A stretch of 64,000 nucleotides of DNA from an uncultured Candidatus Babeliaceae bacterium (lineage in GTDB: Bacteria; Babelota; Babeliae; Babelales; Babelaceae): contig OY969927.1 in the NCBI GenBank assembly GCA_963704655.1, positions 736,001-800,000 on the forward strand. The letters are read 5' to 3'. A program made the translations under genes and the position numbers. Below are positions 22,787 through 64,000 of this stretch, piece by piece (the stretch's first letter is position 1; each line of letters opens with the position of its first letter). The notes under the pieces are model-generated. The model had not been told where the DNA came from and searched no databases. It saw only the letters and a list, made by a program, of their open reading frames with translations.

Positions 22787-22867
22787 GTCAATGAAAGTCT
22801 GCTATATATCTAGTAAAGTTTACGCAAAAATTGTAAAACGATCAATCTATGGTAAAATTATATCATT

Positions 22868-24807: not shown

Positions 24808-26309
24808 GCTTCATTAATTTCCTTAATAACAAACATATTAGCGTTATTAAGTTTTTGAAAAGCTTCATTTGCACTAGCATAATTCTCAGGATTTTTATCA
24901 GGATGAACTTTCAAAGACAATATCCTAAATGCTCTATTAACATCATCTATTGTTGCTTTATGAGAAACGCCCAAAATCTCATAAGGATTTTTAGTATTTA
25001 GGATCCGTGTTATCGCTTGATCTTGAGTTTCATTTTTTAATTCAGAACTCATAGAACTTTCAGCTTCAAATGATTTTTTATAAGCATCTTTTAACACATT
25101 CACGTCCCATATTTTGGCGACCTTGCCAAGAGACAAAGTAATTATTTTTTTATCTGAAGGTGAAAATTTTACAGACAAAACTTTATACTCACCGCCAAAT
25201 GGATTAAAGCTTGTCAGAGTCTTGTGAGTTTGTACATCTTGTATAGTAACCGTTTCATTTTCACCTACCAAGATAACCATATCACCATGATATGAAAATA
25301 TTGTCTTGCTTGAATCATAAGCTTCATGTCCAAGAATTTTATAAAGATTGCCTAAAGCTGTACCTATATTGCCATCCCAAACTCCGATAAAGCCATCAGG
25401 TGTGTAGGTAAGAATTTTAGTTCCATCTGCTGAAAAAGCTATAGTCGGTCTATCTTCTTCGGGATTACTTACTTCTTTTTCTTTAACAAGTGTGGCTATC
25501 TTTTGACCTGCCTCTACTGACCATAATACTATCGGGCCATAATACTTTTGCCCTGAAATGGTCTGCACAGCACTGGTGAGTAGTTTTATGCCATCGGGTG
25601 AAAAGTGCGCTATATTTACGTTTGGAAAGGTATGCAAACTGGTGCCGGTAGCAACATCCCATATTTTTGCAACGCTTTGTTTTTTTGCAACATCTTGTGC
25701 TACGGTAAGGAGCTTACTTGCATCAGAAGAAAATTCTATAACACTAACCGCTTTAGGCGTCGCAATTGCCGCCTGCTTTTTGCCTATAGAAGGCATAGCC
25801 CCTGAAGATGTTTCAGGCGCCTTAAGAGCCTCGTAAGCTTTAAGACTAAGTAAGCTTCCCCCTGTTGCAACATCCCAAATTTTAACTATTCCATCTTCTG
25901 CTCCTGTTGCAAGCTTTAGATCATCGTGAGAAAAACTTACTTTATTAATTTTTTTTGGATGAGCATTAAAAGTACTTATCATGCTACCAGTTCCGGTATC
26001 CCACAAAATAACTGTCCCATTTGAAGATCCAGTAACAATTTTTTTACCATCATGCGAAAATGCCGCAACCACAACAGGACTACTATGATCAAGCTTATAT
26101 ATAAGTTTGCCAGTTTGCGCATCAAAAAGATCTGCGCTGTTTCCCTCACCAGGGGTTAAAATTTGCTTTTCATCTGGGCTAAAAAATGCGAATAATATCA
26201 TAGCATTATTTGAAATTGTTACTACAGGTGAAATATCCTGCATCCCACAAAGCTGTTGAGCCATGCCCAGCAAAACAAGAATAAAAACATTAAGAATATT
26301 TTTTTTCAT
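24804..26309 (-). CDS. Signal peptide + WD40 repeats + C-terminal DnaJ domain
   Basis: Multiple FSxDG...KIWD repeats; NPYEILGV...HPDKN. Confidence 0.9.
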   Translation of the reverse strand: MKKNILNVFILVLLGMAQQLCGMQDISPVVTISNNAMILFAFFSPDEKQILTPGEGNSADLFDAQTGKLIYKLDHSSPVVVAAFSHDGKKIVTGSSNGTVILWDTGTGSMISTFNAHPKKINKVSFSHDDLKLATGAEDGIVKIWDVATGGSLLSLKAYEALKAPETSSGAMPSIGKKQAAIATPKAVSVIEFSSDASKLLTVAQDVAKKQSVAKIWDVATGTSLHTFPNVNIAHFSPDGIKLLTSAVQTISGQKYYGPIVLWSVEAGQKIATLVKEKEVSNPEEDRPTIAFSADGTKILTYTPDGFIGVWDGNIGTALGNLYKILGHEAYDSSKTIFSYHGDMVILVGENETVTIQDVQTHKTLTSFNPFGGEYKVLSVKFSPSDKKIITLSLGKVAKIWDVNVLKDAYKKSFEAESSMSSELKNETQDQAITRILNTKNPYEILGVSHKATIDDVNRAFRILSLKVHPDKNPENYASANEAFQKLNNANMFVIKEINEA

Positions 26310-31067: not shown

Positions 31068-31552
31068 ACACTATTACGATAACGGTAAACACGAATATAA
31101 GAAAATGCTGAAACGGGGGTAGTTAATGCGTACTGTTCATATCCGTCTGTTATATACAGTGTTCCAGACTGTAACGTGCCATCAGGATGCGCACCTATCT
31201 TTTTATCTACAAAAGTAACCATTTGTGTAACAAGCTTTTGTGGTGAAGATGGCGGCCCATATACATCAGGTAATACCCCAAATCTAAAACCATCTTGCAA
31301 AGCATAACGACTGCCGTCATATATTAATGCTGAATTTACTTCATCAATAGTAATTTTTTGCTCTTTTTTTAAGCACGTTGCACGTGTTGCCGCAGTACGC
31401 AGCAACAGGCTCAACACAGCAACATCAGTAGCAAAAGAAGTGCCCTTAACGACATTATAACTTATAAATCCGATTGTAGAACAAACAAGTATTAACGTTA
31501 TTACCAGCATCAACTCAAACAGCATGAACCCTTGTCTGGCCATTCGAGCCAT
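31052..31552 (-). CDS. Type IV pilin / T2SS pseudopilin-like protein
   Basis: MARMARQG|FMLFELMLVI prepilin motif. Its ATG overlaps the upstream stop (TAATG). Confidence 0.85.
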   Translation of the reverse strand: MARMARQGFMLFELMLVITLILVCSTIGFISYNVVKGTSFATDVAVLSLLLRTAATRATCLKKEQKITIDEVNSALIYDGSRYALQDGFRFGVLPDVYGPPSSPQKLVTQMVTFVDKKIGAHPDGTLQSGTLYITDGYEQYALTTPVSAFSYIRVYRYRNSVWQSY

Positions 31553-32044
31553 TATTCGATTCCCTCTTGCGAAACTATGAAATCTGCATCGCAGCCGCTC
31601 GTGGTGAGCGTAGTCGAATCCATGCGGCAAGATTCTTCATTTTTGAATCCACCCCAACCATTACGTATTAATATCTCTTTTTTCTGACGCGTCCAGCGCT
31701 TTATTTTATGCTCTGCCACAAATGCCTCATCGCGTGTTTGAAATAACTCAAAATATTTTAATGTAACGGGTAGTCTATTTAATGTGTAACCCTTATACTT
31801 GCCTTCATTATGTTCGCATACCCTTTGTTCTAAATTATCTGTATGCCCAATATAATAAGAACCATCAGCACATTGAACGATATAAAAATAAAAACCTTCA
31901 TTCATGATTTACCAAATTTTTTTAGGCCGCATGGATTCGACTACGCTCACCACGAGCGGCCTGTTAAAGTGATTTTATTATAGATAAATTACAATTAATA
32001 ATTTTCTGTCTTGGTAGAAAAACATTATTCGATTCCCTCTTGCG
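31550..32044. mobile_element. GIY-YIG cassette with 35-bp inverted repeats (31594-31628, 31926-31960) and 22-bp direct repeats (31550-31571, 32023-32044)
   Basis: IR gccgctcgtggtgagcgtagtcgaatccatgcggc, exact inverse at the other side; DR cattattcgattccctcttgcg twice. Mobility is inferred. Confidence 0.8.
31552..31905 (-). CDS. Small GIY-YIG nuclease (UPF0213/YhbQ-like)
   Basis: YFYIVQCADGSYYIGHT...R..EH...YT..R.P......E......A...E..IK.W.R.KK. Confidence 0.93.
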   Translation of the reverse strand: MNEGFYFYIVQCADGSYYIGHTDNLEQRVCEHNEGKYKGYTLNRLPVTLKYFELFQTRDEAFVAEHKIKRWTRQKKEILIRNGWGGFKNEESCRMDSTTLTTSGCDADFIVSQEGIE

Positions 32045-46135: not shown

Positions 46136-48697
46136 ATGGAAAAAAAGTACGATCATCAGATTAATGAACCTAGAATAAAAGCCTTTTGGCACGAAGATGC
46201 CACCTACACCCTAGCACCTGAACAACTAGATGATCGACCTCTTTTTAGTATAGACACTCCCCCGCCTACCGTTTCAGGCTCACTACATATTGGCCATATA
46301 TTTTCCTATACGCATACCGATCTAATCGCGCGCTATAAGCGCATGAGCGGATACGCCGTATTCTATCCATTTGGCTTTGATGATAACGGGTTGCCCACAG
46401 AGCGCTTTGTTGAAAAAAAGAAAAGTATTACGGCTTTTAGCGTGGGCCGTTCAGAATTTATTAAACTCTGTCTTGCAGAAACGGTTGAAGTTGAAAAAAA
46501 ATTCCAAGATTTGTGGCAGACTATCGGCCTTTCAATCGATTGGAACCATTGGTATTCAACCATCGACGCACGAACACGCAAAATCTCACAAGAATCGTTT
46601 ATCGATTTATATAGTAAAAAATATGTCTATCGCAAGCAAGAACCGGCACTTTATTGCACCACTTGTTACACTTCTGTAGCTCAAGCAGAACTTGATGATG
46701 CAGAAAAAGAAACATTCATGACCACTATCGCCTTTACCGGCGCCGATGGTTCGGTGTTGCCTATAGCAACAACACGTCCAGAATTTTTAGGCGCATGCCT
46801 GGCAGTTTTATATAACCCAGAAGATGGCCGTTATAAGCATTTAAAAGGCACCGTTGCAAGCGTGCCACTTTATGGAACTACCGTTCCGTTATTGCCCGAA
46901 GAAACGGTTAAAATAGATAAAGGCACTGGGCTTGTTATGTGTTGCTCTTTTGGAGACACTACGGATATTGAATGGATCAAAAAACTTAATCTCACCATTA
47001 AGCCAATTTTGCAAAAAGATGGCCGCTTTCAGGCTGATTTAGAGTATATTGGTGGCCTAAAAGTTAAACCTGCCCGTGAAAAAATTCTTGCTGAACTTGC
47101 AACACAAAATTTGATTATTGAACAAAAGAAGCTTGTTCATAATGTCAATATTCATGAACGCTGCAAAAATGAAATAGAGTTTTTAAGTTTACCGCAGTGG
47201 TTTATCGATATTAAATCACATAAAGAAGATTTTCTTGCTATGGGCCGCCAAGTTATGTGGCACCCAGAATATATGAAATCACGATATGACAACTGGGTAG
47301 AGCATATCAATTGGGACTGGTGCATTTCGCGTCAGCGCTTTTTTGGAATTCCGTTTCCTTGCTGGCACTGCACAACCTGCGGTACCGTTATTTTTGCAGA
47401 AGAATCACAATTACCGATAGATCCACAAGAAACACCTTACCATAAACCATGCCCGCAATGTGGCAGCACAGAAATTGTACCTGATATGGATGTTATGGAC
47501 ACGTGGAACACGTCGTCATTAACGCCACAGATTGCTGCAGAGATGTTTAAAAAGGCGTACCCAAAAACCCATAAAACGTTATTGCCGATGAGCATGCGCC
47601 CGCAGGCACATGATATTATCCGCACGTGGGCATTTGATACCATTGTTAAATCGTGGATGCGCGACAAACATATTCCATGGCACGATATTGTTATCTCTGG
47701 CCATGTGCAAACAAATGATAAACAAAAGATCTCTAAATCGCAGGGCAATTCACCACTTGAACCAGAAAACTTGCTTAAAACGTACCCTGCCGATGTAATT
47801 CGTTACTGGACCGCCGGTGCTCAGTTAGGAACAGACACCGCGTTTTCTGAAAACCAGTTTAAAATTGGCCAACGATTAATTGTTAAACTCTGGAACGCCT
47901 GTTTATTTATTAAAGAACATGGTACCCCGCTAACCCTTCGACAAGCTCAGGATGAGCGGGTCTTTAGTGCTGAGCATTCGTCGAAGCATCAGGATGAGCG
48001 AGGGGAGGCCGCTCGTGGTGAGCGAAGTCGAATCCATTTGAGCGGACTTGTAATCCCGCAGGACACCATTAATAAATGGATCTTGCACCAAGCGACAGAA
48101 ACATTTGGTGCCTATAAAAATGCATTTGATGATTACCATTTTCATAAAGCGCTTGAAAGTGTCGAAAAGTTCTTTTGGAACGATTTTTGTGATAACTATC
48201 TTGAACTGGTTAAAGATCAATTTTTCAACCCGGCAAACTATAGCCCAGAACTTATAGCAGAAACACAGGCCGTTTTATATAAAGTCGGTTTTGAATTGAT
48301 ACAATGGTATGCGCCGTTCTTGCCGTATATCACCGAAACCATTTATCAAGAATTATATAAAGAAAACTACAAAGTAACATCGCTGCACCAAACAACGTAT
48401 AGTTCAGAACATGACCATTATGATTATGTTCATGAAGTTAAAGTTGTTGAGCTCTTACTGCTGGCAGTACAGCACGTACGTAAAATTAAAACTGATGCTG
48501 CCGTATCGCTTAAAACAGATATCAAGCTTTTAACTATCCACTGCACCGCGGAGCAGGAAAAACAGCTTGCAACGGTTGAAAAAATATTAGCCGGTGTTGC
48601 ACGCGCACAAGAGATACGTTATACAACAGTAAAACTTGAACAAGAAGTTTCACTTATTGATAATCAGGGCATTTACTCAATGGTAATTGATTTATGA
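46136..48697 (+). CDS. valS: Valine-tRNA ligase (short, archaeal-like type) with in-frame repeat insertion
   Basis: DTPPPTVSGSLHIGH, DWCISRQR, PQAHDIIRTW, KISKS. Confidence 0.97.
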   Translation: MEKKYDHQINEPRIKAFWHEDATYTLAPEQLDDRPLFSIDTPPPTVSGSLHIGHIFSYTHTDLIARYKRMSGYAVFYPFGFDDNGLPTERFVEKKKSITAFSVGRSEFIKLCLAETVEVEKKFQDLWQTIGLSIDWNHWYSTIDARTRKISQESFIDLYSKKYVYRKQEPALYCTTCYTSVAQAELDDAEKETFMTTIAFTGADGSVLPIATTRPEFLGACLAVLYNPEDGRYKHLKGTVASVPLYGTTVPLLPEETVKIDKGTGLVMCCSFGDTTDIEWIKKLNLTIKPILQKDGRFQADLEYIGGLKVKPAREKILAELATQNLIIEQKKLVHNVNIHERCKNEIEFLSLPQWFIDIKSHKEDFLAMGRQVMWHPEYMKSRYDNWVEHINWDWCISRQRFFGIPFPCWHCTTCGTVIFAEESQLPIDPQETPYHKPCPQCGSTEIVPDMDVMDTWNTSSLTPQIAAEMFKKAYPKTHKTLLPMSMRPQAHDIIRTWAFDTIVKSWMRDKHIPWHDIVISGHVQTNDKQKISKSQGNSPLEPENLLKTYPADVIRYWTAGAQLGTDTAFSENQFKIGQRLIVKLWNACLFIKEHGTPLTLRQAQDERVFSAEHSSKHQDERGEAARGERSRIHLSGLVIPQDTINKWILHQATETFGAYKNAFDDYHFHKALESVEKFFWNDFCDNYLELVKDQFFNPANYSPELIAETQAVLYKVGFELIQWYAPFLPYITETIYQELYKENYKVTSLHQTTYSSEHDHYDYVHEVKVVELLLLAVQHVRKIKTDAAVSLKTDIKLLTIHCTAEQEKQLATVEKILAGVARAQEIRYTTVKLEQEVSLIDNQGIYSMVIDL
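47927..48045. repeat. Family A composite (three units) in frame in valS
   Basis: ccgctaacccttcgacaagctcaggatgagcgg..tgctgagcattcgtcgaagcatcaggatgagcg..gccgctcgtggtgagcgaagtcgaatccat. Confidence 0.93.
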
Positions 48698-49149
48698 TTC
48701 ATATAAAAAACAGCCAACGAAAAATAGCCATTAGCGCAGATCAGCTCAAAACTGATCTGCAGATTATTTTAAACGCGCTTAATTATGCTGATTTTGATAT
48801 CTCGGTTTTAATTACCACCAATAAAACTATTCGTGAATATAATCGCGACTATCGCCATAAAGACAAAGCCACAGATATTCTGTCGTTTCCTTACCACCCA
48901 GAACTCAAGGCGGGCAAACGGATAAAAGTTAAAGAGGAAGAAGATAAAAATCTAGGCGATCTTATAATTTCAGCTGAATATGTCACCAAAGACGCCAAAG
49001 AACTTAACGTAACCTTTGAAACACGCATAAAAAAATTGCTTGTACACGGCGTGTGCCACTTGCTTGGTTATGACCATATAATCGATGCAGACTGGCGCCG
49101 CATGCGGGCAAAAGAAGGCTTTTTATTAAAGAAAATATTAAACCAATAA
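48694..49149 (+). CDS. ybeY: rRNA maturation endoribonuclease YbeY
   Basis: TDILSF, LGDLII, HGVCHLLGYDH. Confidence 0.97.
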   Translation: MIHIKNSQRKIAISADQLKTDLQIILNALNYADFDISVLITTNKTIREYNRDYRHKDKATDILSFPYHPELKAGKRIKVKEEEDKNLGDLIISAEYVTKDAKELNVTFETRIKKLLVHGVCHLLGYDHIIDADWRRMRAKEGFLLKKILNQ

Positions 49150-49160
49150 CTTTATAAACT

Positions 49161-50084
49161 ATGAACACGATAAAAAATTTATCATTTCTTATGTTCTTTA
49201 TTACTTGTTCTACCGGACATGCTATGGAACAAATAAACATGAATATCACCACGATTTCTCGGAAAGAAGCATTAAAGAAAATCCCACCCCAGGATCGCTT
49301 TCCATTTATAGAAAGCACATTCAAACGAAATTCTTCTGAAATTACTTATCAATGTGAAGAGCCACATTTTACTATCACACTCCCAACCGGAAAATTATTC
49401 AAAAATGTAGTAGCGCTTCACCCAGTCACCGCGCAGTTTGCCGCAGAAGGGGATCCGATAGACTACAAAAGATCTTTAATTATAGGCAGTTTATTTGATG
49501 GTCGCATAAGCAAAACAGTCCCCTATCAACCTAATGTTGCGTTTGAAGAATTAAAATTCAGCCCAGATGCGCAAAAAGTTATTGGCATAAGCAATAACAT
49601 TATAATAATAATTTACTTCAATAGTTCTGCTCAAACCTTCCTATATCTTATGCGCCCCGCGCCCATAGTGACTTTTTGCACTAACCCCAGAAATGAAGAA
49701 TTGTCTTTCAGCCTTACAAACAACACTATTGAAAAATATTTACTAGATGAAGCCTTGGATAAAGCCCCGTTAGGTTATACAAAATTTAGTGGTAAATCTT
49801 GTATAACTAATCACCCAGCCAAACAGATCTGTTTTGGCCCTGATTCAGAAATTATAGGGATAAATTCATCGGGAGTTATACGCCATCTTTTTGATGATCC
49901 TGAAAAAGGTATAAACATTGAACATCACACATTCACATTCCCAGAAGAAACTCCTGGATTTGAGCATATAAAACAACTATACAATACAGGCAAAGATGAC
50001 TTTGTTTTTGTAACTCAAGATGAAGAATCCGAAACTCAATTTTTCTCATTAAAAATTACCAAAAAACATGAACCCGAAGATTAG
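49161..50084 (+). CDS. Exported beta-propeller-like hypothetical protein
   Basis: Signal peptide, FSPD motif; paralog of the next gene. Confidence 0.65.
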   Translation: MNTIKNLSFLMFFITCSTGHAMEQINMNITTISRKEALKKIPPQDRFPFIESTFKRNSSEITYQCEEPHFTITLPTGKLFKNVVALHPVTAQFAAEGDPIDYKRSLIIGSLFDGRISKTVPYQPNVAFEELKFSPDAQKVIGISNNIIIIIYFNSSAQTFLYLMRPAPIVTFCTNPRNEELSFSLTNNTIEKYLLDEALDKAPLGYTKFSGKSCITNHPAKQICFGPDSEIIGINSSGVIRHLFDDPEKGINIEHHTFTFPEETPGFEHIKQLYNTGKDDFVFVTQDEESETQFFSLKITKKHEPED

Positions 50085-50104
50085 GGGTTCAAGGCTTGAG
50101 CCCT
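50084..50104. terminator. Hairpin after stop codon
   Basis: ggggttcaa-ggc-ttgagccct; no clear U-tract. Confidence 0.4.
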
Positions 50105-50196
50105 GAATAAAAAAATTACTTGTGCACAGCGCTGGTGATTTGCTAAACTATTAACAATATTATCGATAAGGAATGAACAAAGCATAAAGGATATTT

Positions 50197-50838
50197 GTGA
50201 ATTACGTTAAAGCAGTACTCATACTTTTATCCACCGGTTCATGCTTTATAACAAACACAATGATCCCAGATGATCTTCAAATGGTTACCATTCCTGATGG
50301 CGAGGGCACTTTAAAAAAAACTTCACAGCTAGTCGCTTATCTTGCCAGCAAATCGACATCAAAACCACATATTGCCAAAAAATTTATCGGCATTGAAAAA
50401 AATACGGTATCGCTGTATTATCCAGATAAAGTGCTTGAGTTTAATTTCTCCTGTAAAATATCTTCCTGTTGCATAAGCCCGGATAATAAACGTGTTGCTT
50501 TAAGCCTTGAAGACAAAACGATTCATTCATTTCCTATGCCAGAAAATAATGCTACCGCAATTAAAACAGACATTATTAAAAGTGCAGAGCATCCGACACA
50601 CCATATCTGTTTTGGGCAAAATTCAACCCTTGTGACCATTAATCACCATGAAATTATATGCGCCACCTTTGATTCCCCAAATCCTCAACATGCTCGATTT
50701 GGATTAGAAGATTTTGACAAATTCGGACCCATCATCACCATTTGCCCGACCGATTCTCCTGATGAATTTATTGTTAGTACAAAAAAAGAAAACGAAAAAA
50801 CTCAGTATCACTCTCTGAAACTACTGCGCAAAAAATAA
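50197..50838 (+). CDS. Exported beta-propeller-like hypothetical protein
   Basis: HPTHHICFG matches HPAKQICFG of the previous gene; GTG start. Confidence 0.65.
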   Translation: MNYVKAVLILLSTGSCFITNTMIPDDLQMVTIPDGEGTLKKTSQLVAYLASKSTSKPHIAKKFIGIEKNTVSLYYPDKVLEFNFSCKISSCCISPDNKRVALSLEDKTIHSFPMPENNATAIKTDIIKSAEHPTHHICFGQNSTLVTINHHEIICATFDSPNPQHARFGLEDFDKFGPIITICPTDSPDEFIVSTKKENEKTQYHSLKLLRKK

Positions 50839-50839
50839 T

Positions 50840-51283
50840 TTATAACGGGCACGTCTTAAAATGCTGCTCGAAATCTTTTTTTATTTCTGGCGAAGTATCC
50901 CGACATAAAAATTTAATCCAAGAGCCAAAAAACGAACATGTTGATTGGGCATCACGCTCATGTTCATCTATCTGCAGCCGTCGAGAACGTTTTATAGCAA
51001 CTTGTGGAGCAAAAGTTTCTTCATGTGCCTGTTCCAAATTATTAATTTTTCTCTGTTGCGCTGCAATAACAATATCTTTTGCCGCATTTTCAGCTTTTAA
51101 CCCATCAGTTTTTCTGGCATGTTCCTGAGAAAAATAGATCCCCGTGCCAACACAGCCAACCAGAGCACCAAGAGTAAAGAGCGCAATGTGCTCAATAGCA
51201 CGCTCATCGATTTCAGCATGCACCGGCAGACACGCAAAAAAGGCAACGGTAATAAGGGACAATTTTTTATAACATTTTTCCAT
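50840..51283 (-). CDS. Signal + TM + coiled-coil hypothetical protein
   Basis: PVHA signal end, Gly-rich TM segment, heptads. Confidence 0.7.
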   Translation of the reverse strand: MEKCYKKLSLITVAFFACLPVHAEIDERAIEHIALFTLGALVGCVGTGIYFSQEHARKTDGLKAENAAKDIVIAAQQRKINNLEQAHEETFAPQVAIKRSRRLQIDEHERDAQSTCSFFGSWIKFLCRDTSPEIKKDFEQHFKTCPL

Positions 51284-51358
51284 AGAAACCTCCTCATTTC
51301 TTTATAAATACCATGAATATATATTCCAAAACAATAATGTACCCTAATTATTATAAAT

Positions 51359-51391
51359 AAAAAGGGCCAGTTATAAAACTGGCCCCTTTTT
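51359..51391. terminator. Intrinsic terminator, potentially bidirectional
   Basis: aaaaagggccagtt-ataa-aactggccccttttt. Confidence 0.8.
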
Positions 51392-51417
51392 AAAATTCAA
51401 AAGAATGTTATAGACAA

Positions 51418-51954
51418 TTAATAGTTATTGCCTTCATTGTCATCACCAAACAGTTTGACAAGTCTTTCATAGGTTTCATGAGCTTTTGATTCCATTTTAT
51501 CAAAAAGATCATTTAAAGTATGAGCTTGAACAACATCATGTGCATTATGTTTTTTAAAATCATTAAATTTGTTGCGCAAATCAGTGATATCTTTCTTGGT
51601 CGTGGCAAAAGCCTTTTTTACTTCTTCCCTGTTTGAACCATTACATGAATTTAAAGATGCATTACACGCGTTAAGTTTACTCTCTAATTCAGTCACTTTT
51701 TTTAAAAGAGCCTTATTTTCTTGACGAGGCTCTGCAAGCTTAGTTTCTAATGCAGTTATTTCTTGAGTTAACGAATCAACCTGTTGCTGGTGTCGTGATC
51801 GCAGATAAAGATTCACAGTTGCACCACCTACAACGAGACAACCAAAGCCTACAACAGCATTAACAATTAAGTCTTCTTGTGCACTTGCATGAACAGGGCT
51901 GACCACCAAACCACCTGTTAATAACAGCAATGATAATTTTTTAGATATTTGCAT
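51418..51954 (-). CDS. Signal + TM + coiled-coil hypothetical protein
   Basis: Start at ATG 51954 after RBS gagagga; PVHA signal end. Confidence 0.7.
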   Translation of the reverse strand: MQISKKLSLLLLTGGLVVSPVHASAQEDLIVNAVVGFGCLVVGGATVNLYLRSRHQQQVDSLTQEITALETKLAEPRQENKALLKKVTELESKLNACNASLNSCNGSNREEVKKAFATTKKDITDLRNKFNDFKKHNAHDVVQAHTLNDLFDKMESKAHETYERLVKLFGDDNEGNNY

Positions 51955-52036
51955 ATCGAATCCTCTCTCTTGTTGAAAATAATTAAACAATTAACAAATC
52001 ATTAAAGATTACATCGCCTGCAAATAAATAACAATA

Positions 52037-53344
52037 TCAAATATGCTGGATAATATCGCGCTGAGGGACTTTAACCTCAATACCTGTGGTCATATTTTTA
52101 ATAGTTGCCATGCCAGAGGCCTGTTCATCGGCCCCAATAAGAATAGCCCATTTTGCGCCCATTTTATCAGCAGCTTTAAACATACTTTTAATAGATGATT
52201 TATCTAAAATAATATCGGCACAGATATGTTCGGCATGAAGCATTTGCACAATCTGCAACCCTAAATTTCTTTGTTCAGCTGTTAAGGGAATAATAACTGT
52301 AAGCGCCGGTTGAGTATCATGACCAACTAAACTTTTTTGCGATTCAAGCAACAACTGTAACCGTTCAAGGCCAACAGCGGCACCGATAGACGGGTAGTCA
52401 TGTTTAGCCCCAATTTGCGTTGCAAGCGAATCATAACGGCCACCGCCACAGAAGGTGTTTTGCGCGCCCAAGCCATCAGAAGAAACAGAAACAAACTCAA
52501 AGACCGTTTTATTGTAATAGTCTAATCCGCGAACCAACGTCGGCTTAACAGAATAGGTTATAGAAAGTTCTTCAAGAATATTTTTTAGCTGTTGCCATTC
52601 AAGTGCAGATTCTTGTGCCATGGTATCAATAATAGTAGGCGCTGTTGCAAAGAGTTTGTGGCAGCTTTCCTGCTTGCAATCAAAAACACGCATAATATTA
52701 GTGTTCATGCGATGCTTACACAAATCACATAATTCTGTAATATGCTTTTCAAGAAACTTTTTAAGAACTTTTTGATATGCTGCACGGTCTTCACGCGTGC
52801 CAAGGTAATTGATTAAAAGAGCATAACCTTCAATTTTTAAAACATTCATAAAAAGGGCATCGAGCATCGCGATAAAAAGGGCATCCTGCAAAATTGAATC
52901 AGAGCCGATTATCTCCATGCTCATTTGATGAAACTGGCGATAGCGCCCTTTTTGTGGGCGTTCATGCCTAAATGCGGGCCCAACAGAAAAAACTTTCCAT
53001 GGCGTATCTTGAATGCCGGCATTAATAAATGCGCGCATAATACTTGCAGTAAGTTCGGGGCGAAGACACATTTTATCTGAATCGGCGCTAGCTGAATCGC
53101 CCCCCCGCTCATCCTGAGCTTGTCGAAGGGTTAGCGCAACGTCTGAAAGTACCCGATACATCTCCTTGCTGACAACGTCAGTTTCAAGGCCCAATGACCG
53201 CTTAAAAAGTTCAAGTGGCTCGATTAAGGGAGTGGATATTTCATGAAAATTATAATCCAAAAGATGTTTTTTTGCCTTTTGGATTATCCAATTATATAAA
53301 GAAAGATCAAGAAAATCTTGTGTACCCTTAATACGCGTAATCAT
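52037..53344 (-). CDS. hisS: Histidine-tRNA ligase with in-frame repeat insertion
   Basis: KGTQD, KEMY, LRPE.TA, FRHERPQKGRYRQF, RGLDYY, GGGRYD. Confidence 0.98.
   Translation of the reverse strand: MITRIKGTQDFLDLSLYNWIIQKAKKHLLDYNFHEISTPLIEPLELFKRSLGLETDVVSKEMYRVLSDVALTLRQAQDERGGDSASADSDKMCLRPELTASIMRAFINAGIQDTPWKVFSVGPAFRHERPQKGRYRQFHQMSMEIIGSDSILQDALFIAMLDALFMNVLKIEGYALLINYLGTREDRAAYQKVLKKFLEKHITELCDLCKHRMNTNIMRVFDCKQESCHKLFATAPTIIDTMAQESALEWQQLKNILEELSITYSVKPTLVRGLDYYNKTVFEFVSVSSDGLGAQNTFCGGGRYDSLATQIGAKHDYPSIGAAVGLERLQLLLESQKSLVGHDTQPALTVIIPLTAEQRNLGLQIVQMLHAEHICADIILDKSSIKSMFKAADKMGAKWAILIGADEQASGMATIKNMTTGIEVKVPQRDIIQHI
53105..53136 (+). repeat. Family A copy in frame in hisS
   Basis: ccgctcatcctgagcttgtcgaagggttagcg, exact reverse complement of valS 47928-47959. 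Confidence 0.95.
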
Positions 53345-53495: not shown

Positions 53496-55088
53496 ATGAA
53501 TTTCAAACAGTTAGGTTCTATAAGCCTACTTGCACTGACGGCGACCAGCAATATTTCAAGCTGGTATCAAGCAGTTTCAAGTAAAACTTATTATAGTAAT
53601 ATTCAATTGTGGGAAATTGGTAAACCAACCAAAGAAATATTCTTTAATACCGAACGCATGCAAGAACGTGAAGACGGCTGGTGCGGTGGATTTGAAATCG
53701 CAGGATATGGCGGTCAATCAACCAACTCAAGCAAACTTAATTCATACTTCATGCCTTATGGTAAATGTTCTTTAAATGTCATTGAAGGTATTCCATTAGG
53801 AACATCTCCTTGGGTTAACCCAGCAGATGGCACCACCAACCGCGATATCGAAGCACGTAACTTTAACATCGAAACAGTTAACGGCGCAAATGGGGAAGAT
53901 GGACAACAGTACATGGGTACCATCACCTTTAACCCTAAACAAACCATTGCCGGTGTCGGCTTCTGCTTTAGACAATCATTCTGGAAGGACCACCGCGGCG
54001 TACCAACAATCTGGGGCGAAATTTCATTCCCGGTTCAGTATGTAAAAAACGAAATGAACCTGTGTGAAAATGTCACCCAAACAGGCGGCGGCGCATCAGA
54101 CACTGTCGGTCTTGATAACTCACTTCACGTGGGCACCATGCAGGCTGCATTTGCACAAACAAACTGGCTCTATGGCAAAGTCGACAATAGCAAAGATCTC
54201 AGCACATGGGGCGTTGCAGATGTTGAATTACGCGTAGGCTATAACTCTATCAACACAGACTGCTGCGATTTGAATGCCTATCTTGGTGTGGTAATTCCAA
54301 GCGGAACAAAAATCGACCAATGCAATGCTGCATATATGTTTAACTCGGTAATTGGTAATAACCACCACGTTGGTATCTTATACGGTACACACTTTGGTTA
54401 TGAACTGTATGGCAAAGGCGATCATATGCTCCGCATGGAACTTGATATGTCAAGCAAATACCTTTTCTCTAACCACCAATGGCGTTCATTTGATTTAGTT
54501 GGTCAAGAATGGAGCCGTTACCTTGAAGTGTACACAGATGTAAACCAAGCAACTGCTGCTGATTCTGCAGTTCCACCACTTACTGTTAATAGTGGTACAT
54601 CTGGTATCAACGTCTTTACTCGCCGCTTACGTGTTTCACCACGTTTTGCAACCAATATCAATACCGCACTTAACTATTCATACAGATCAGTCGATTTTGA
54701 ATTTGGTTACAACTTATTCACCCGTCAAGCAGAAAAAGTTGAGTTCCCACGCAACTGTTGTGTCGATTTCCCACTTACTGTAGCGGTAAAAGATATTAAT
54801 GGTACTGGTGGCACAAATATTGCACGTACTATTAAAAATGATTTTGGCGGATCAGTTACAACTCTTGCAAACTATGCACAAAACGTTATTCAATTACCTG
54901 AATTGAATCTTGATTCTGCTGCGCACCCTGCATTAATCACCAACACTATTTATGGTGGCGTTGATTACAATACAGAATGCTGGACGGTCCCAATGTTCTT
55001 TGGTGTTGCTGGCATGTACGAATTTTGTAGCATGAACAGCTCGATTGACCGTTGGAACGTGTTAGGCAAATTCGGCATTACTTATTAA
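53496..55088 (+). CDS. Exported paralog-family protein (putative outer-membrane beta-barrel)
   Basis: Signal peptide, EARNFNI, NWLYGKVD, GNNHH, ends GKFGITY. Confidence 0.8.
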   Translation: MNFKQLGSISLLALTATSNISSWYQAVSSKTYYSNIQLWEIGKPTKEIFFNTERMQEREDGWCGGFEIAGYGGQSTNSSKLNSYFMPYGKCSLNVIEGIPLGTSPWVNPADGTTNRDIEARNFNIETVNGANGEDGQQYMGTITFNPKQTIAGVGFCFRQSFWKDHRGVPTIWGEISFPVQYVKNEMNLCENVTQTGGGASDTVGLDNSLHVGTMQAAFAQTNWLYGKVDNSKDLSTWGVADVELRVGYNSINTDCCDLNAYLGVVIPSGTKIDQCNAAYMFNSVIGNNHHVGILYGTHFGYELYGKGDHMLRMELDMSSKYLFSNHQWRSFDLVGQEWSRYLEVYTDVNQATAADSAVPPLTVNSGTSGINVFTRRLRVSPRFATNINTALNYSYRSVDFEFGYNLFTRQAEKVEFPRNCCVDFPLTVAVKDINGTGGTNIARTIKNDFGGSVTTLANYAQNVIQLPELNLDSAAHPALITNTIYGGVDYNTECWTVPMFFGVAGMYEFCSMNSSIDRWNVLGKFGITY

Positions 55089-55120: not shown

Positions 55121-56974
55121 ATGAAATCGATAAAAAGTTTATTAACCTTGTGGTGCTGCTTAATTGCAGCACCATTTGCACTCGATGCAAAGGTTCTGAC
55201 TACAGCGCAAGCTCAGGCAAACCTTGATACCGCAATTGCGGCATTTAAAAAAGATCAAACAAACCCAGCGCTTGCACAACAAGTACTTAACAGTTACGCA
55301 CCTATTCAAGGCGCTCAAATAAAAGCTAATGCTGATGCAAAACTTAAAAAAGAGCTGGGCAAAACTATTAAACAAGTAGAGCAAATAGTCACAGGAGCAA
55401 AAGCTGCTGAGATTAAAAAATCTACACCTGGAATAAGCACCTCTGATGCCGCAGCTGAAGCTGAGGTACAAGAAATTATGGTACTAGCAAAAAACCTTCT
55501 TGATAACTATGATGATCAAGGAATAAATTCTGCAACTTTAAATGATATTAATGAATATTATGCTGCATTAACCGAACTCAGCAAACGAATTGATGGCTCT
55601 CCTTACAAAGCTAAGCTTGCAGAAACTCAAAATAAACTTAATGCACAACTTTCTAAGGTAACAATAAGAATAGCAACACTTTCAGTGCCTGCGCCTACAG
55701 CAGCGCCTGCAATACCTGCAGGAGCGCCAGTAGCACCTCCAGCAGCACCTGCAGCAATACCCGCAGCACCTCCTGCACCTCCAGTACCAGCAGCAGCAGC
55801 TCCAGGAAAAGGCAAGTCTGATTATCAAATTGAACTTGCAAGAATAAAACCATTAGTTAAGGCTGCATATGATAAAGCTCTAGATGTAATCAAAAAATAT
55901 GAAACGGCTAACGCCTCCAACTTTAATCAAGGCTTAGGCTCAGTTTCAACTACACGATGGGCAACTCAGCTTGAAAAAGAAAATGCATTACAACTTATTG
56001 CTGAAGTCAAAAAACTTATCTCAGAAATAACTGCATTAGTTAATAAAGTTGACACGAAGTTCAACGGAAACTTATACGATATGATGCATACTAGCGATAT
56101 TTACATTGACTGCATCGTAAAAGCTGATAGAGACAAAGAAGCTGAGCAATGGAAAGAACAAAAAGCTGATTTACTCAGCTTTATTGCTAGGTACAATTCA
56201 GATGTTGCTGGAGTTGAAAAACTGGAAACCGCAATAAATGCATATACACCAAAAGGTACCATTCAGCGTCCTGAGATAATTAGCAAATACACCGAGCCAG
56301 CTCTTAAAAAAGTAGAAGATATAAACTCGTTATACAACCAAGTTTCCAAACTTAATTTTGTTACAAAATACTCAGTTACCGCATATGCTTCAAAAGACCA
56401 AACAGAAGAGGCTCTGAAAAAAATAGCGCAGATACGTAAGCTCAATGATGAAATACCTGTAATATTAGAACCTCTAGACAAAGCTAATGCTCATAAACCA
56501 TTTAATCAATTCTTAACAGGTGATTACTTCCGTAGTCTTATCACGGCAGATGAAAATCTACGTCCTGATGAATATAAACAACAAGAAAAAGAGCTCCAAG
56601 ATAAACTAAACACCTACGAAAAAGCAATGAAAGCACTTGATGGTTTAGAGAAAGATGCTAACCAACGCTTGCAAAATATTGCTGCTGATGAAGCTGCCAA
56701 AAAAGGCGCTCCAGTAGCACCCCCAGCACCTCCAGTAGCAACAGCACCAGCAGCGGGCAAAGTTACCGTTAAAGGCATTGAGGTCAGTGATGAAATGTTC
56801 AAAAGCGATGATGCTGCAGAAGTTTCACGTAAATTAGGTGAGCTAGCTGATGAAGATATAAAAGCGCATAAAGGACAAATTATAAAAGCACTAACCGATA
56901 AAATTAGCGCAACAAGTGACCAAGTTCAAAAAGAACTCATTCAGAAAGAATTAGCTGAAATTGAAAAAATATAG
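55121..56974 (+). CDS. Exported helical protein with Pro/Ala-rich linkers
   Basis: Signal peptide; two GAPVAPP-containing tracts. Confidence 0.8.
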   Translation: MKSIKSLLTLWCCLIAAPFALDAKVLTTAQAQANLDTAIAAFKKDQTNPALAQQVLNSYAPIQGAQIKANADAKLKKELGKTIKQVEQIVTGAKAAEIKKSTPGISTSDAAAEAEVQEIMVLAKNLLDNYDDQGINSATLNDINEYYAALTELSKRIDGSPYKAKLAETQNKLNAQLSKVTIRIATLSVPAPTAAPAIPAGAPVAPPAAPAAIPAAPPAPPVPAAAAPGKGKSDYQIELARIKPLVKAAYDKALDVIKKYETANASNFNQGLGSVSTTRWATQLEKENALQLIAEVKKLISEITALVNKVDTKFNGNLYDMMHTSDIYIDCIVKADRDKEAEQWKEQKADLLSFIARYNSDVAGVEKLETAINAYTPKGTIQRPEIISKYTEPALKKVEDINSLYNQVSKLNFVTKYSVTAYASKDQTEEALKKIAQIRKLNDEIPVILEPLDKANAHKPFNQFLTGDYFRSLITADENLRPDEYKQQEKELQDKLNTYEKAMKALDGLEKDANQRLQNIAADEAAKKGAPVAPPAPPVATAPAAGKVTVKGIEVSDEMFKSDDAAEVSRKLGELADEDIKAHKGQIIKALTDKISATSDQVQKELIQKELAEIEKI

Positions 56975-58406: not shown

Positions 58407-58595
58407 TCCTTCGATACATTTTGCTTGCGCAAAACACTCAGGATGCACGGATTAAAGGCCCGCTCACCCAGAGTACTTCGATGCAGTTCATCCTGAGTAA
58501 AATAGTGCGTAAACGCACCAATCGAAGGGCTCAGTATAAACTTCGTCGAGTCGCCTGTCAGCCGCCGCTCATCCTGAGCCTGTCGAAGGGTTGCG
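58407..58595. repeat. Largest family A cluster (about four units, partly nested), intergenic
   Basis: tccttcgatac..actcaggatgcacgg; ccgctcacccagag..[ttcatcctgag..tcgaaggg]..gtcgag; gccgctcatcctgagcctgtcgaaggg. Confidence 0.88.
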
Positions 58596-58727
58596 CAGGC
58601 TGGAAAGGGTTGGGGATATATTGGTATTATAAGTATAAATTAGGGAGTTTTGACTAGAGGGCCATTCAGTTTCTTTAAAAGCTAGTAAAAAGTGTAACCA
58701 TATGTTCTAAAAAAAAAGGAAGAATTT

Positions 58728-60367: not shown

Positions 60368-61399
60368 ATGAAGCACACTATACTCGTTACCGGTGGCGCA
60401 GGGTACATCGGCTCACACACTGTCCAAGAGCTTATTGATCATAACTACCACGTAGTTGTAATTGATAGAACATGCTCTTTTGAAATTAATCACCCGAATA
60501 TCACCTATTTTCAATGCGATATAGCCGATACTCAAGCGGTAAAAACAATTTTAAATCATTACACCATTGATGCGGTTGTCCACTGTGCTGCATCAATAGA
60601 AGTCGGCGCCTCAGTAGTAAACCCTGCAGAATATTATGAGAATAATGTTATAAAAACTTTGATGCTACTCGATACGTTGCGTAAACAAGATATAAACAAA
60701 ATTGTCTTTTCTTCAAGCGCTGCGGTATATGGCATTCCACAACAGCTGCCTCTTAAAGAAACACACTCCTGCAACCCCATAAACCCCTATGGCAGAACAA
60801 AATATATTATTGAGCAGATATTAAGCGATTATCAAAAAGCGTACAATTTAGAATACGTAGCGTTGCGTTATTTTAATGCGGCCGGCGCTTGGCCAGAATA
60901 TAATCTGGGTGAACGGCATGAACCAGAAACACATCTTATCCCGCGCATTTTACAAGCAGTTTTAGATAATAAAAAATTCACACTTTTTGGCAATGACTAC
61001 GAAACTCCTGATGGCACGTGTGTACGTGATTATGTGCATGTACGCGATATTGCACAAGCACATAGACTCGCGTTGGAATTTTTATTTAATAAACATAAAA
61101 GCGCAATTATCAATTTAGGAACAGCTCGTGGATTTTCAATTCAAGAAATTATCACCAGTGTCGAACAGGTTACTAAAAAAAAGATCGCCATAAAACATAT
61201 GCCACGCAGAGCGGGTGACCCTGCTTATCTTATTGCCGACAATGGCTTGGCGCATGAACTTTTAGATTGGCGACCATTACATAGTGATATCACCAGCATT
61301 ATTGCCAGCGCATATGAATTTTATATACAAAAATCTCATAAAATAGTTAATATACGGCCGTACAATGCGTCCGCTAACCCTTGCGTAGGCTCAGGATGA
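60368..61399 (+). CDS. galE: UDP-glucose 4-epimerase
   Basis: GGAGYIGSH, FSSSAAVYG, YGRTK, LRYFN, DGTCVRDYVH. Confidence 0.97.
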   Translation: MKHTILVTGGAGYIGSHTVQELIDHNYHVVVIDRTCSFEINHPNITYFQCDIADTQAVKTILNHYTIDAVVHCAASIEVGASVVNPAEYYENNVIKTLMLLDTLRKQDINKIVFSSSAAVYGIPQQLPLKETHSCNPINPYGRTKYIIEQILSDYQKAYNLEYVALRYFNAAGAWPEYNLGERHEPETHLIPRILQAVLDNKKFTLFGNDYETPDGTCVRDYVHVRDIAQAHRLALEFLFNKHKSAIINLGTARGFSIQEIITSVEQVTKKKIAIKHMPRRAGDPAYLIADNGLAHELLDWRPLHSDITSIIASAYEFYIQKSHKIVNIRPYNASANPCVGSG

Positions 61400-61439
61400 G
61401 CGAGCGTTTACTGCTGAGTCGAAGCATCAGGGTGCACGG
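61371..61439. repeat. Family A composite overlapping the galE stop
   Basis: ccgctaacccttgcgtaggctcaggaTGAgcg..tgctgagtcgaagcatcagggtgcacgg. Confidence 0.88.
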
Positions 61440-61473: not shown

Positions 61474-63006
61474 ATGAAAAAAAAAATAATTAAGTTAGTT
61501 CTTATAGTGATAGCGCCAGCTATTAAAGCAGATGATTTTGCATGTCATTCATTTTTTACGGTGCACCCGCAATTTAGACTTGTATCGCCAGAAAAAGAGG
61601 CGCTCTTTCGTAACGACAGAATGCTCTTGCGTGAAGGTGGCATAGAAGGAACCATACAGACAGTATTCTATGGCGGACAATCTAACAACGATCTTGAATT
61701 AAATAAATATTTCTTACCATCAAATAAAACAGCATTAAATGCACAAGAATATAAATCGCCTAACTTTACCCAAGATGGCATTTTCGTCAAGGACCTTGAG
61801 GCACGTAACTTTAATATCGCCACAAACCCAAATTCAGGCACCACATTTAAAAGTACCATTCTTTTCAGACCGCAACAAACAAGCTTTGGTATAGGGTTTT
61901 CGTGGATTCAAAACCTCTGGCATGACAGCCAGGATGTTCCACGTATCTGGGCAGAAGTTTCGTTCCCGGTGCAGTATATAAAAAATGAAATGAAATTAAA
62001 CGAATTTGTTGTTAATGACGGCGGCGGCCCAAATGGTCAAATAGGCTTAGACGGCGCGCCACATGTTGCAAATATGAGAGAGGCATTTAAGCAACCAAAC
62101 TGGCTCTATGGCAAAGTTGATAACTGTGCCGACCTTTCTACATGGGGCGTTTCTGATATTGAACTTACTGTTGGTTATAATGCATTCACCTGCCAAACAT
62201 GTGATTTTAATGCTTATGCTGGGCTTGTTATACCCACAGGAACAAAAATTAACCAAAAAAATGCTGCTTATATGTGGCGCCCCGTTGTGGGAAATAATCA
62301 CCACTGGGGCATTCTTTTTGGCGCACACGCAGGCTTTATTGTGTTTGAACATAAACTCCATAAAATCGATTTAGAGTTTGATGCAGAGGGCCAGTATCTT
62401 TTTAAAAATACACAGTGGCGCTCATTTGATTTAGTACAACAGGAGCAATGGAGCAGATACCTTGAAGTGTATCAAAATCTTGCACAAGCAACTGAAGCTG
62501 CTGGATACCCGGCACCATTAAACATGAATGCTGGCACATCGGGGATAAATGTATTTACCACATGTGCACAAGTGCATCCAAAGTTCACGCTTAATACCAA
62601 TAGCGGCTTTATTTACACCTGGAAGGGACTGCAAGCAGAGTTTGGTTTTAATTTTTTTACGCGTGAAGCAGAAGAAATTACTAAATGTTCATGGAATACT
62701 GACGTAGCAATTAAAAATATAGATGGTGAAGGTGAAACAACTATTGCACGCACCATAAAAAATAATTTTACTGGCTCTGCAATTACGCTTGCAAACTATA
62801 CCACACTTACCTTGGCAGATTTAGATCTGAATTCCGCGGCACACCCAACAACACTTACACACACAGTATACACAGCACTTGGTTGGAACTGGGATGATAT
62901 CGCCATTCCTGTCTTTATTGGCGCCGGTGCTTCATACGAATTTACAACGGTAACCTGCGCACTTGATCGCTGGTTGATATTTGGTAAAGTTGGTATTTCA
63001 TTTTAA
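61474..63006 (+). CDS. Exported paralog-family protein (putative outer-membrane beta-barrel)
   Basis: Collinear with the 53496 gene; ends GKVGISF. Confidence 0.8.
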   Translation: MKKKIIKLVLIVIAPAIKADDFACHSFFTVHPQFRLVSPEKEALFRNDRMLLREGGIEGTIQTVFYGGQSNNDLELNKYFLPSNKTALNAQEYKSPNFTQDGIFVKDLEARNFNIATNPNSGTTFKSTILFRPQQTSFGIGFSWIQNLWHDSQDVPRIWAEVSFPVQYIKNEMKLNEFVVNDGGGPNGQIGLDGAPHVANMREAFKQPNWLYGKVDNCADLSTWGVSDIELTVGYNAFTCQTCDFNAYAGLVIPTGTKINQKNAAYMWRPVVGNNHHWGILFGAHAGFIVFEHKLHKIDLEFDAEGQYLFKNTQWRSFDLVQQEQWSRYLEVYQNLAQATEAAGYPAPLNMNAGTSGINVFTTCAQVHPKFTLNTNSGFIYTWKGLQAEFGFNFFTREAEEITKCSWNTDVAIKNIDGEGETTIARTIKNNFTGSAITLANYTTLTLADLDLNSAAHPTTLTHTVYTALGWNWDDIAIPVFIGAGASYEFTTVTCALDRWLIFGKVGISF

Positions 63007-63075: not shown

Positions 63076-64000
63076 ATGAAGAGAAAATTAGTCGCGTTAG
63101 CACTGTTAGTTGCTGCGCCCGCAGTTCATGCGGATGATTTTGCTGGCCATTCATTTTTTACGGTTCGGCCACAATTTAGGTTAGTGTCACCAGAAAAAGA
63201 AGCGCTCTTTAGAAACGACCGCATGCAATTGAAAGACGGTGGCATTGAAGGAACCTGCCAAGTTGTTGTTTACGGCGGCCAATCAAATAACGGTTGTGCC
63301 ATAAACCAATATTTCTTGCCGTCCAATAAAACCTCATTAAATGTCCAAGAATATAAAACACCATTCTTTACACAAGACGGACAACCATCTAAAGATCTAG
63401 AGGCACGTAACTTTAATATCGTTACCAGCTCAGTAACTGAAACATTCAGAAGTAACATCGCATTTAATCCACAACAAACATCATTTGGTATCGGCTATAG
63501 CTGGATCCAAAACATTTGGCATGACTGCGACGGAGTTCCACGTGTTTGGGGCGAAATCTCATTCCCTGTACAATATATAAAAAATGAGATGAACTTACGT
63601 GAAAACGTTCTCAATGACGGCGGCGGCGCAGACGGCAATGTCGGCTTAGATGGCGCACAGCATGTTGGAAACATGACAGAAGCATTTGCACAATCAAACT
63701 GGCTCTATGGCAAAGTTAACAACTGTGCGGACCTTTCTGTATGGGGTGTTTCTGATGTAGAAATTACCTTTGGTTACAATGCGCTCTTTTCTGAAACCTG
63801 TGACTTTAATGCCTATGTCGGCTTTGTTGCACCTACAGGAACAAAGATCGATCAAAAAAATGCGGCATACATTTGGCGCCCTGTTATCGGGAACAACCAC
63901 CACTGGGGCGTGCTTTTCGGCGCACATGCATGTTTTTACTTGTATGAATGCGGACTACACAACCTTCGTTTAGAATTTGATGCTGAAGGCCAATATCTTT
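63076..64000 (+). CDS. Third close paralog, truncated by the window end
   Basis: Not in the ORF track. ATG 63076 after aaggag; MKRKLVALALLVAAPAVHADDFAGHSFFTVRPQFRLVSPEKEALFRNDRM. Confidence 0.88.
   Translation, partial: MKRKLVALALLVAAPAVHADDFAGHSFFTVRPQFRLVSPEKEALFRNDRMQLKDGGIEGTCQVVVYGGQSNNGCAINQYFLPSNKTSLNVQEYKTPFFTQDGQPSKDLEARNFNIVTSSVTETFRSNIAFNPQQTSFGIGYSWIQNIWHDCDGVPRVWGEISFPVQYIKNEMNLRENVLNDGGGADGNVGLDGAQHVGNMTEAFAQSNWLYGKVNNCADLSVWGVSDVEITFGYNALFSETCDFNAYVGFVAPTGTKIDQKNAAYIWRPVIGNNHHWGVLFGAHACFYLYECGLHNLRLEFDAEGQYL

Follow-up and report, generated by a model that had tools for sequence, protein, structure and literature searches.

Why two unrelated aminoacyl-tRNA synthetases of one bacterium should contain the same peptide was the question raised by a stretch of 64,000 nucleotides from an uncultured Candidatus Babeliaceae bacterium (assembly GCA_963704655.1, contig OY969927.1, positions 736,001 to 800,000), which is called the window throughout. 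The valS gene (46136–48697, + strand), assigned from its open reading frame (ORF), its translation and the names of its orthologs (valyl-tRNA synthetase), encoded a valine–tRNA ligase of 853 residues, and its best solved relative was the ValRS of T. thermophilus (1gax, E 3.8e-68). The hisS gene (52037–53344, − strand), assigned from its ORF, translation and homologs, encoded a histidine–tRNA ligase of 435 residues, which matched E. coli HisRS (1htt, E 6.3e-73). The peptide LTLRQAQDER was located at residues 599–608 of ValS and residues 71–80 of HisS in the translated ORFs, and its presence in both a class I (ValS) and a class II (HisS) synthetase, as claimed by an initial annotation, was upheld by translation. 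The DNA encoding this peptide is very probably one module, termed module A, of a GC-rich, modular and palindromic family of dispersed repeats, which is translated in frame and tolerated.

The two genes were 100% identical over 33 nt, from 47928 to 47960 in valS (+ strand) and from 53104 to 53136 in hisS (− strand), as found in the repeat table and by inspection of both sequences. The identity of 32 nt given by the initial annotation was therefore real and one nucleotide longer than stated. The copies were on opposite strands of the window and had the same orientation relative to each gene. Chance was rejected as the source of the match, because the 32-nt pattern, allowing up to three mismatches, matched four times in the window and in none of 100 dinucleotide-preserving shuffles. 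Module A was open in only one of its three frames per orientation, and the whole 120-nt element of valS in one of six frames. A shared frame arising as an independent coincidence was also rejected, since module A has a single open frame, and the common frame reflects selection. Coding copies would survive only if they fell in the single open frame, were divisible by three in length and landed in a flexible segment that permits insertion, and the surviving copies would be translated as extra loop residues. These three conditions would explain the presence of the same peptide, in the same frame, in synthetases of class I and class II.

Modules A and B shared a core composed of TTCGAC, a spacer of 2 to 3 nt, GCTCA, a spacer of 3 to 4 nt, and GAGCGG. 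A regular expression for this core matched 15 times at 11 loci in the window. The comparison loci L001–L005 were five loci from metagenome-assembled genomes of Babeliaceae/Dependentiae, collected in one genome-contig scan, and valS adjoined hisS in all of them. In these loci (75.6 kb) the core matched once, inside the hisS loop of L002, and no match was found in L001 and L004 (21 kb each). The 24-nt core of module B was identical at 4118, 22730, 31595 and 31936. A further module, type 2, with ends resembling CCCTCGAT...GGATGCAC, was located at 10943, 16860, 24034 and 58428, and was often joined to module A. Modules of ~30 nt were assembled into composites of 70–120 nt, which formed GC-rich islands in a surrounding genome of ~39% GC and lay mostly in spacers between genes.

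Inverted doublets were located at 4086–4156, 22716–22790 and 2466–2524, and the composite elements were predicted to fold as end-to-end hairpins. The complete element at 22716–22790 (+ strand), intergenic and upstream of pheT, consisted of module B and reverse module A between CCCGC...GCGGG ends (−30.9 kcal/mol, z −2.5). The palindromic element at 4086–4156 (+ strand), also intergenic, consisted of a B-like module and reverse module B with the centre GAGCGGCCGCTC (−30.4 kcal/mol, z −2.4). The element at 2466–2524 (+ strand), module B and a reverse A-like module, was located just 5' of the likely true start of a gene for an AMP-binding enzyme.

The valS gene contained an in-frame composite palindromic insert at residues 598–638 (PLTLRQAQDERVFSAEHSSKHQDERGEAARGERSRIHLSGL; 47927–48049, + strand), which was defined by ortholog and DNA alignments. 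The insert was built of 120 nt, beginning with module A (identified from the repeat table and by pattern search), followed by an inner module and reverse module B, and was predicted to fold end to end (−45.7 kcal/mol, z −1.6). The core of its module B (48009–48032, − strand; TTCGAC-TTC-GCTCACCACGAGCGG) was the same as the other four copies, including those flanking the GIY-YIG gene described below, except for its 3-nt spacer. The segment PLTLRQ...HLSGL (residues 598–638) was absent from all four complete orthologous loci, L001, L002, L003 and L005 (66–80% identity), the net gain relative to L001 was ~37 residues, and an empty site was seen in the DNA alignment of L001–L005. The alignment with T. 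thermophilus ValRS broke after query residue 592 and resumed at residue 669. Of the 26 other orthologs aligned at this site (alignment A3), 25 lacked the insert, and the one that carried it was P0142, with 94% identity. This distribution placed the origin of the insert after the split from orthologs of at most 86% identity and before the split from P0142. The interior of the insert differed in P0142, where a 14-residue stretch was missing and eight other residues stood instead; in the window this stretch was flanked by two direct repeats of CAGGATGAGCG. The insert has been remodelled since the split from P0142.

In the AlphaFold2 model of ValS, built on the same alignment (mean predicted local distance difference test score, pLDDT, 84.8; predicted template modelling score 0.81), no long segment other than residues 601–636 had a pLDDT below 50. 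The flanking helices, residues 572–595 and 644–665, had mean pLDDT values of 86–97 in blocks of 10 residues. The insert is located in the linker that joins the catalytic body to the anticodon-binding helices. It is proposed that valS received a whole hairpin element.

The hisS copy of module A, which also reads LTLRQAQDER, was a single module and thus half an element, and had no hairpin by itself (−15 kcal/mol, z −0.8). It was followed on its 3' side by a run of G and a 15-nt tandem duplication (GDSAS/ADSDK), and together these occupied the loop between KEMY and LRPE (residues 64–93; 53066–53155, − strand). The initial annotation had considered this segment normally short, and the comparison agreed: the loop had 30 residues here and 11 in E. 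coli HisRS, with 19 gapped positions in the alignment, and 9–13 residues in 78 of 117 measurable homologs (120 examined). The eight closest orthologs (77–92% identity, alignment A1) all had long loops of 23–27 residues with varied content, whereas the loops of orthologs at or below 79% identity were mostly short. The hisS loop was therefore opened in an ancestor of the clade, and since then it has been filled anew or converted. The closest ortholog, P0003 (92% identity), carried VALAQAADSASVDSD in the loop, and P0005 carried ALNMRQAQDERAGD, which retained MRQAQDER. P0007, which is the HisS of L001 (~81% identity), carried ALNVRQAHDQRAD, a drifted copy of module A in the same frame that matched the window copy at ~27 of 37 nt in an alignment read by eye. 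In P0004 the loop read MDSTTLTTSG, from module B in a different frame, and in L002 it read DPSTSLRESG, from a different module, CCTTCGACTTCGCTCAGGGAGAGCGGG, in a different frame. The half-element of hisS would lie in a loop that was expanded and filled anew several times within the clade.

The comparison loci showed two further features. The gap between valS and hisS was ~3.3 kb in the window (48697–52037; ybeY and four ORFs without a family match) and ~0.9 kb in L001 (11290–12201), and the spacing of the two genes therefore varied among relatives. In L004 (9900–15700), a stop or frameshift interrupted hisS close to its start, and valS matched in three pieces with a stop codon; these defects are either assembly errors or decaying genes.

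The age of the inserts bears on how the two copies became identical. The initial annotation had described the repeat activity as recent, which did not hold for the original inserts, as the valS insert was shared with the 94% ortholog and the hisS loop insert was older. It did hold for the copying behind the identity at 33 of 33 positions. Given the older hisS insert and the shared valS insert, this identity is attributed to re-insertion or gene conversion, not to one recent event per gene. It would result from recent copying within an active, homogenised family, and the first opening of both sites would be older. That gene conversion between old inserts, or from other genomic copies, produced the identity in place of new insertion is a possibility only slightly short of even. 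The hisS insert predated the split from the orthologs of 81–84% identity, yet the window copy was a perfect consensus of module A and the L001 copy had drifted, while L001 and L004 were free of core matches. An AA spacer within module A was common to the valS and hisS copies only, and other copies in the window matched at 30–31 of 33 positions. Against gene conversion, the different modules and frames in the hisS loops of relatives fit fresh insertion equally well, and homologous recombination has a lower length limit not far from 33 nt. The hisS pattern fits drift where the family is inactive, as suggested by the absence of core matches in L001 and L004, and renewal where it is active.

Both synthetase sites were also occupied in more distant relatives. 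When six-frame signatures of the modules were searched against 119 HisS and 120 ValS homologs, strong motifs were matched in 4 of 239 proteins, and all four matches were at the same two sites. Three were in the HisS loop, in P0004, in P0039 (54% identity; ALRQAQGER) and in P0112 (53% identity; VLRQAQDES). The fourth was a hairpin doublet in the same linker of a ValS of 49% identity (P0159; GFDKLTTSG...VRPEPVEG). The inserts in the distant homologs are best read as independent events, because most homologs at such distances have short segments. The repeated colonisation of both sites may reflect either a target preference or tolerance alone.

Inserts were not confined to the synthetases. The murB gene (23770–24807) carried an in-frame type-2 insert at residues 81–112 (24010–24105, + strand), which added ~29 residues: the 32 residues of this segment corresponded to 3 residues, 110–112, in the chain of Listeria MurB (3tx1). 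The insert split the domain that binds flavin adenine dinucleotide, and Pfam FAD_binding_4 was matched in two stretches. The murB module was 93% complementary to the copy at 10943–10984. A module copy was also present inside pheT, a third aminoacyl-tRNA synthetase gene, at residues 202–211 (NASTSLSVIG; 22050–22079, − strand), in which 29 nt were 93% complementary to 4089–4117. Orthologs of pheT, murB and the GIY-YIG gene were not found in L001–L005.

Several observations weigh against the repeat-family explanation of the inserts. The z-scores of the composites, −1.6 to −2.5, were modest, because GC-rich shuffles fold too. The pheT module produced no clear length difference relative to the solved PheT (2rhs_B). 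No target-site duplication was visible at the valS insert relative to the empty site in L001 and L004, which leaves a cut-and-paste mechanism, as for MITEs (miniature transposable elements with inverted repeats), unsupported. The HisS model (mean pLDDT 78.7) placed a low-confidence helix at residues 68–80 over the insert, and pLDDT was below 50 at residues 45–67 and 81–92, conserved flanks included; in this poor model a surface position of the loop is at best putative. Of the checks suggested by the initial annotation, mapping on predicted structures placed the ValS insert in a linker of low pLDDT, and the HisS model was poor around the loop. Alignment with orthologs showed a difference between the two sites, with the valS insert absent from 25 of 26 orthologs and the five loci, and the hisS loop long in the eight closest orthologs.

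A candidate enzyme for the family was encoded in the window itself. The protein P0122 (117 residues; 31552–31905, − strand) was a UPF0213/Slx1-like GIY-YIG nuclease (Pfam GIY-YIG, 6.1e-17), and it matched the structures 1ywl (1.1e-14) and 1zg2 (3.5e-14), which correspond to a stand-alone minimal GIY-YIG domain. The UPF0213 type has been grouped with stand-alone prokaryotic Slx1-like nucleases, and eukaryotic Slx1 is a structure-specific endonuclease, according to Dunin-Horkawicz et al. (PMC1564403). The gene was bracketed by inverted arms of module B, at 31594–31628 on its 3' side and at 31926–31960 on its 5' side, which were 100% complementary over 35 nt. The C-terminal tail of P0122 read through the repeat module as MDSTTLTTSG. 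The arms and the gene formed a cassette of ~470 nt, bordered on one side by an ATPase gene of the gspE/pilB type (TIGR02533, 4.7e-196) and on the other by a prepilin-like gene, and an exact 22-nt direct repeat was found at the bounds of the cassette. Within the first copy (31550–31571) the GIY-YIG ORF had its stop codon and the prepilin-like gene its ATG, and the second (32023–32044) held the last codons and the stop of the gspE/pilB-like gene. From its sequence, the cassette seems to have been inserted where two genes once met in a compact junction.

The linkage was also observed in other proteins and replicons. Among 19 near homologs of P0122, 5–6 ended in repeat-type peptides. Strong repeat peptides were found at the ends of 28 of 150 GIY-YIG representatives (the best 150 of 8851), compared with 4 of the 239 HisS and ValS controls (Fisher p 3.5e-9). 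Altogether, 36 of 167 GIY-YIG proteins carried the motif. In these 167 proteins the motif in C-terminal extensions was forward in 26 cases and reverse in 10, and in N-terminal extensions it was reverse in 8 and forward in 2 (p 0.008), a polarity that matches the inverted arrangement around the GIY-YIG gene of the window. Ten records of a plasmid collection encoded a relative of P0122. In Sphingomonas parapaucimobilis (NZ_CP155752.1) the GIY-YIG gene was located between inverted TTCGACTTCGCTCAG...GAACG copies, in addition to a perfect 29-nt hairpin partner. The hairpin doublet of this strain occurred in at least 171 places in its 9 replicon records, and its best match had no annotated feature beneath it in 9 of 9 records. 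The GIY-YIG gene of Methylobacterium bullatum lay between the arms of a 29-nt inverted repeat with a CCTCAGGATGAGG core. Plasmid p1 of Novosphingobium sp. ES2-1 (L009) contained 26 of 26 nt of the window module A in one arm of an intergenic hairpin doublet (L009 901–980), in the spacer between a parA-like gene and parB. The Sphingomonas and Novosphingobium copies extend the repeat family far beyond Dependentiae. In at least two phyla, a physical linkage of UPF0213 genes with the family is well supported by these sequences.

No description of a link between GIY-YIG genes and repetitive extragenic palindromic (REP) sequences was found among the publications listed from the open literature searched, subscription journals being largely outside it. 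By titles and abstracts, publications on GIY-YIG together with miniature inverted repeats concerned eukaryotic or viral elements only, those on COG2827/YhbQ/UPF0213 did not deal with repeats, and in the open literature none described palindromic repeats of this kind in Dependentiae. Six repeat peptides that were queried had no match in the open literature.

The family was compared with known repeat systems. It resembled the Rickettsia palindromic elements (RPEs), as described in PMC10969869, in that dispersed palindromic repeats occurred in frame in unrelated conserved genes of an intracellular bacterium and encoded a conserved peptide; RPEs are ~150 bp long and occupy positions compatible with the protein fold. 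In the window, palindromic dispersal (11 loci) and in-frame insertion in conserved genes (valS, hisS and murB) were both found. The host, in contrast, belonged to the phylum Dependentiae and not to Alphaproteobacteria, and the units were shorter and modular (~30-nt modules and 70–120-nt composites). Most copies were intergenic, the same two protein sites were hit repeatedly in separate lineages, and there was a link to a GIY-YIG gene. The named HisS and ValS homologs were from Candidatus Babeliaceae, Babeliales or Dependentiae, which bore out the view of the initial annotation that an RPE-like repeat occurs in a lineage other than Rickettsia. Its behaviour was RPE-like as well, with a dispersed palindromic repeat placed in frame in conserved genes, in segments that seem permissive and poorly ordered. 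The analogy with RPEs appears to hold for behaviour; by lineage the family is not a member.

The family resembled REP sequences and the hairpins formed by their doublets (REPINs) in its short palindromes arranged as inverted doublets with many copies (at least 171 places in S. parapaucimobilis), and in a nuclease gene flanked by inverted repeat copies, as described in PMC3116915 and PMC3337134. The flanked gene here was of the UPF0213/Slx1-like GIY-YIG type, not an IS200/IS605-type tyrosine transposase, and the copies were not strictly extragenic, since valS, hisS and murB contained them. To our knowledge, no transposition activity is known for UPF0213. No gene for a REP-associated tyrosine transposase (RAYT; IS200/IS605-like) flanked by repeats was found among the 55 window ORFs. 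In enterobacteria, bacterial interspersed mosaic elements combine several module types in varying order and orientation. This mosaic build was shared by the present family, which differed in sequence, in host and in its in-frame genic copies. MITEs such as Correia, QMITE1/2 and enterobacterial repetitive intergenic consensus elements are small and non-autonomous, with inverted ends, stable predicted hairpins and occasional intragenic copies (PMC10969869). The family was similar in these features, and inverted CCCGC...GCGGG ends were present at the complete element. Its elements were GC-rich in an AT-rich genome, whereas MITEs are described as typically AT-rich, no parent insertion sequence (IS) element was found in the window ORFs, and no target-site duplication was visible at valS, the one site with an empty allele.

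By analogy with RAYT genes, which are bracketed by REPs, the UPF0213 gene bracketed by inverted repeats would be a candidate for the repeat-mobilising enzyme. A structure-specific nuclease might cut the extruded hairpins, and the repeats would then be copied or homogenised by repair. In the gene-dense genome of Dependentiae, such a cycle of nuclease and repeat could drive the repeated in-frame colonisation of loops in essential enzymes. That the UPF0213 nuclease keeps the family moving or homogenised is offered tentatively, as a reading somewhat doubtful on present sequences. Tentative, too, is the wider proposal that the hairpin repeats (TTCGAC..GCTCAGG..GAGCGG) and UPF0213 form a REPIN–RAYT-like partnership with a different nuclease fold, extending from Alphaproteobacteria to Dependentiae.

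A number of points count against a role of the nuclease. The dispersed doublets had GAGCGG/CCGCTC at the centre, and the arms around the GIY-YIG gene had the same ends outward; given this opposite polarity, the short elements are not simple internal-deletion derivatives of the cassette. The repeats adjoined many genes of the window, so that adjacency to the GIY-YIG gene alone is weak evidence. The controls in the Fisher comparison were long housekeeping proteins and not matched small ORFs, and 131 of the 167 GIY-YIG proteins lacked the motif, the detection of which requires an ORF that runs through the repeat. Only a weak inverted repeat was found around the GIY-YIG gene of S. paeninsulae (L008), and UPF0213 genes of Firmicutes adjoined a methyltransferase gene, as also noted in PMC1564403.

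The opposite polarity of the arms also favours a common REP- or MITE-like family whose mobility depends on a RAYT or IS transposase encoded elsewhere, with the GIY-YIG gene as a bystander or a hairpin-targeting cassette. The 22-nt duplication fits an insertion of the GIY-YIG gene itself, the view was limited to 64 kb of a contig of ~1.3 Mb, and IS elements are given as the usual source of prokaryotic MITEs in PMC10969869. This explanation has a considerable chance, if below even. It is opposed by the Pfam scan of 55 window ORFs, which revealed no transposase or RAYT domain, and by the repeat–nuclease linkage, which recurred in 36 of 167 GIY-YIG proteins and in Sphingomonas DNA with unchanged polarity.

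It is improbable that the inserted peptides have been selected for a function of their own, such as binding of a host or partner protein or regulation of the synthetases. The recurrence of inserts at the same two sites in distant Dependentiae and the perfectly kept sequence of the hisS copy would agree with such a function. The same DNA, however, was found mostly in spacers, the peptide varied by module and frame among close relatives, the inserts had low pLDDT, and the frame filter alone accounts for the shared peptide. Removal of the inserts, either ahead of translation or following it, in the manner of an intervening sequence or an intein, is highly improbable, as the sequence gave it no support, all intragenic copies were open in frame and multiples of three, which would be unnecessary if they were excised, inserts of 33–123 nt are too short for known introns or inteins, and an Rfam scan of the window at the gathering threshold returned tRNA only, with no known RNA or intron family over the repeats.

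The remaining copies of the repeat family were distributed as follows. A copy of module A was located between two genes at 12795–12830 (− strand), upstream of a metallophosphoesterase gene. A composite of a type-2 module and module A, the latter matching the valS copy at 31 of 33 positions, was intergenic at 16860–16921 (− strand), and a cluster of type-2 modules with one copy of module A was intergenic at 58428–58597 (− strand). A variant of module A (27 of 33) with an inner module at 61371–61434 (+ strand) extended over an epimerase gene's 3' end into the adjoining spacer. The type-2 module at 10943–10984 (+ strand) was noncoding and located downstream of tRNA-Ser (11041–11132, − strand). 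A coding insert in the ORF at 9586–11118 was accordingly rejected, since the stretch is downstream of the tRNA and the start of the long ORF overlaps it. N-terminal coding copies in the ORFs at 2464–4077 and 12772–14070 were also rejected: the Pfam domains and typical start motifs are found only past the repeats, which were accordingly taken as spacers upstream of the genes.

Other features of the window were observed. Three paralogous ORFs of ~510–530 residues without a Pfam match (53496–55088, 61474–63006 and 63076–63999) were 63–76% identical over several hundred nucleotides and may represent a lineage-specific surface or secreted family. The ORF at 55121–56974 (617 residues, no family match) contained Ala/Pro-rich coding repeats in steps of 9–12 nt at 55687–55811 and 56704–56762. 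In the ORF at 24804–26309, WD40 beta-propeller repeats were joined to a DnaJ domain at the C-terminus, an arrangement that is eukaryote-like and occurs here in a parasite of protists.

Selfish DNA within protein genes, known until now chiefly from Rickettsia, is extended by these results to intracellular bacteria of an unrelated phylum. The repeatedly colonised loops of HisRS and ValRS show, as a natural map, where two essential enzymes tolerate insertions, and the repeat inserts are a test case for telling target preference from selection. The linkage to the GIY-YIG gene supplies a testable candidate for the propagation of a widespread family of short repeats. If true, the partnership of repeat and nuclease would be the first function for the uncharacterised UPF0213 family.

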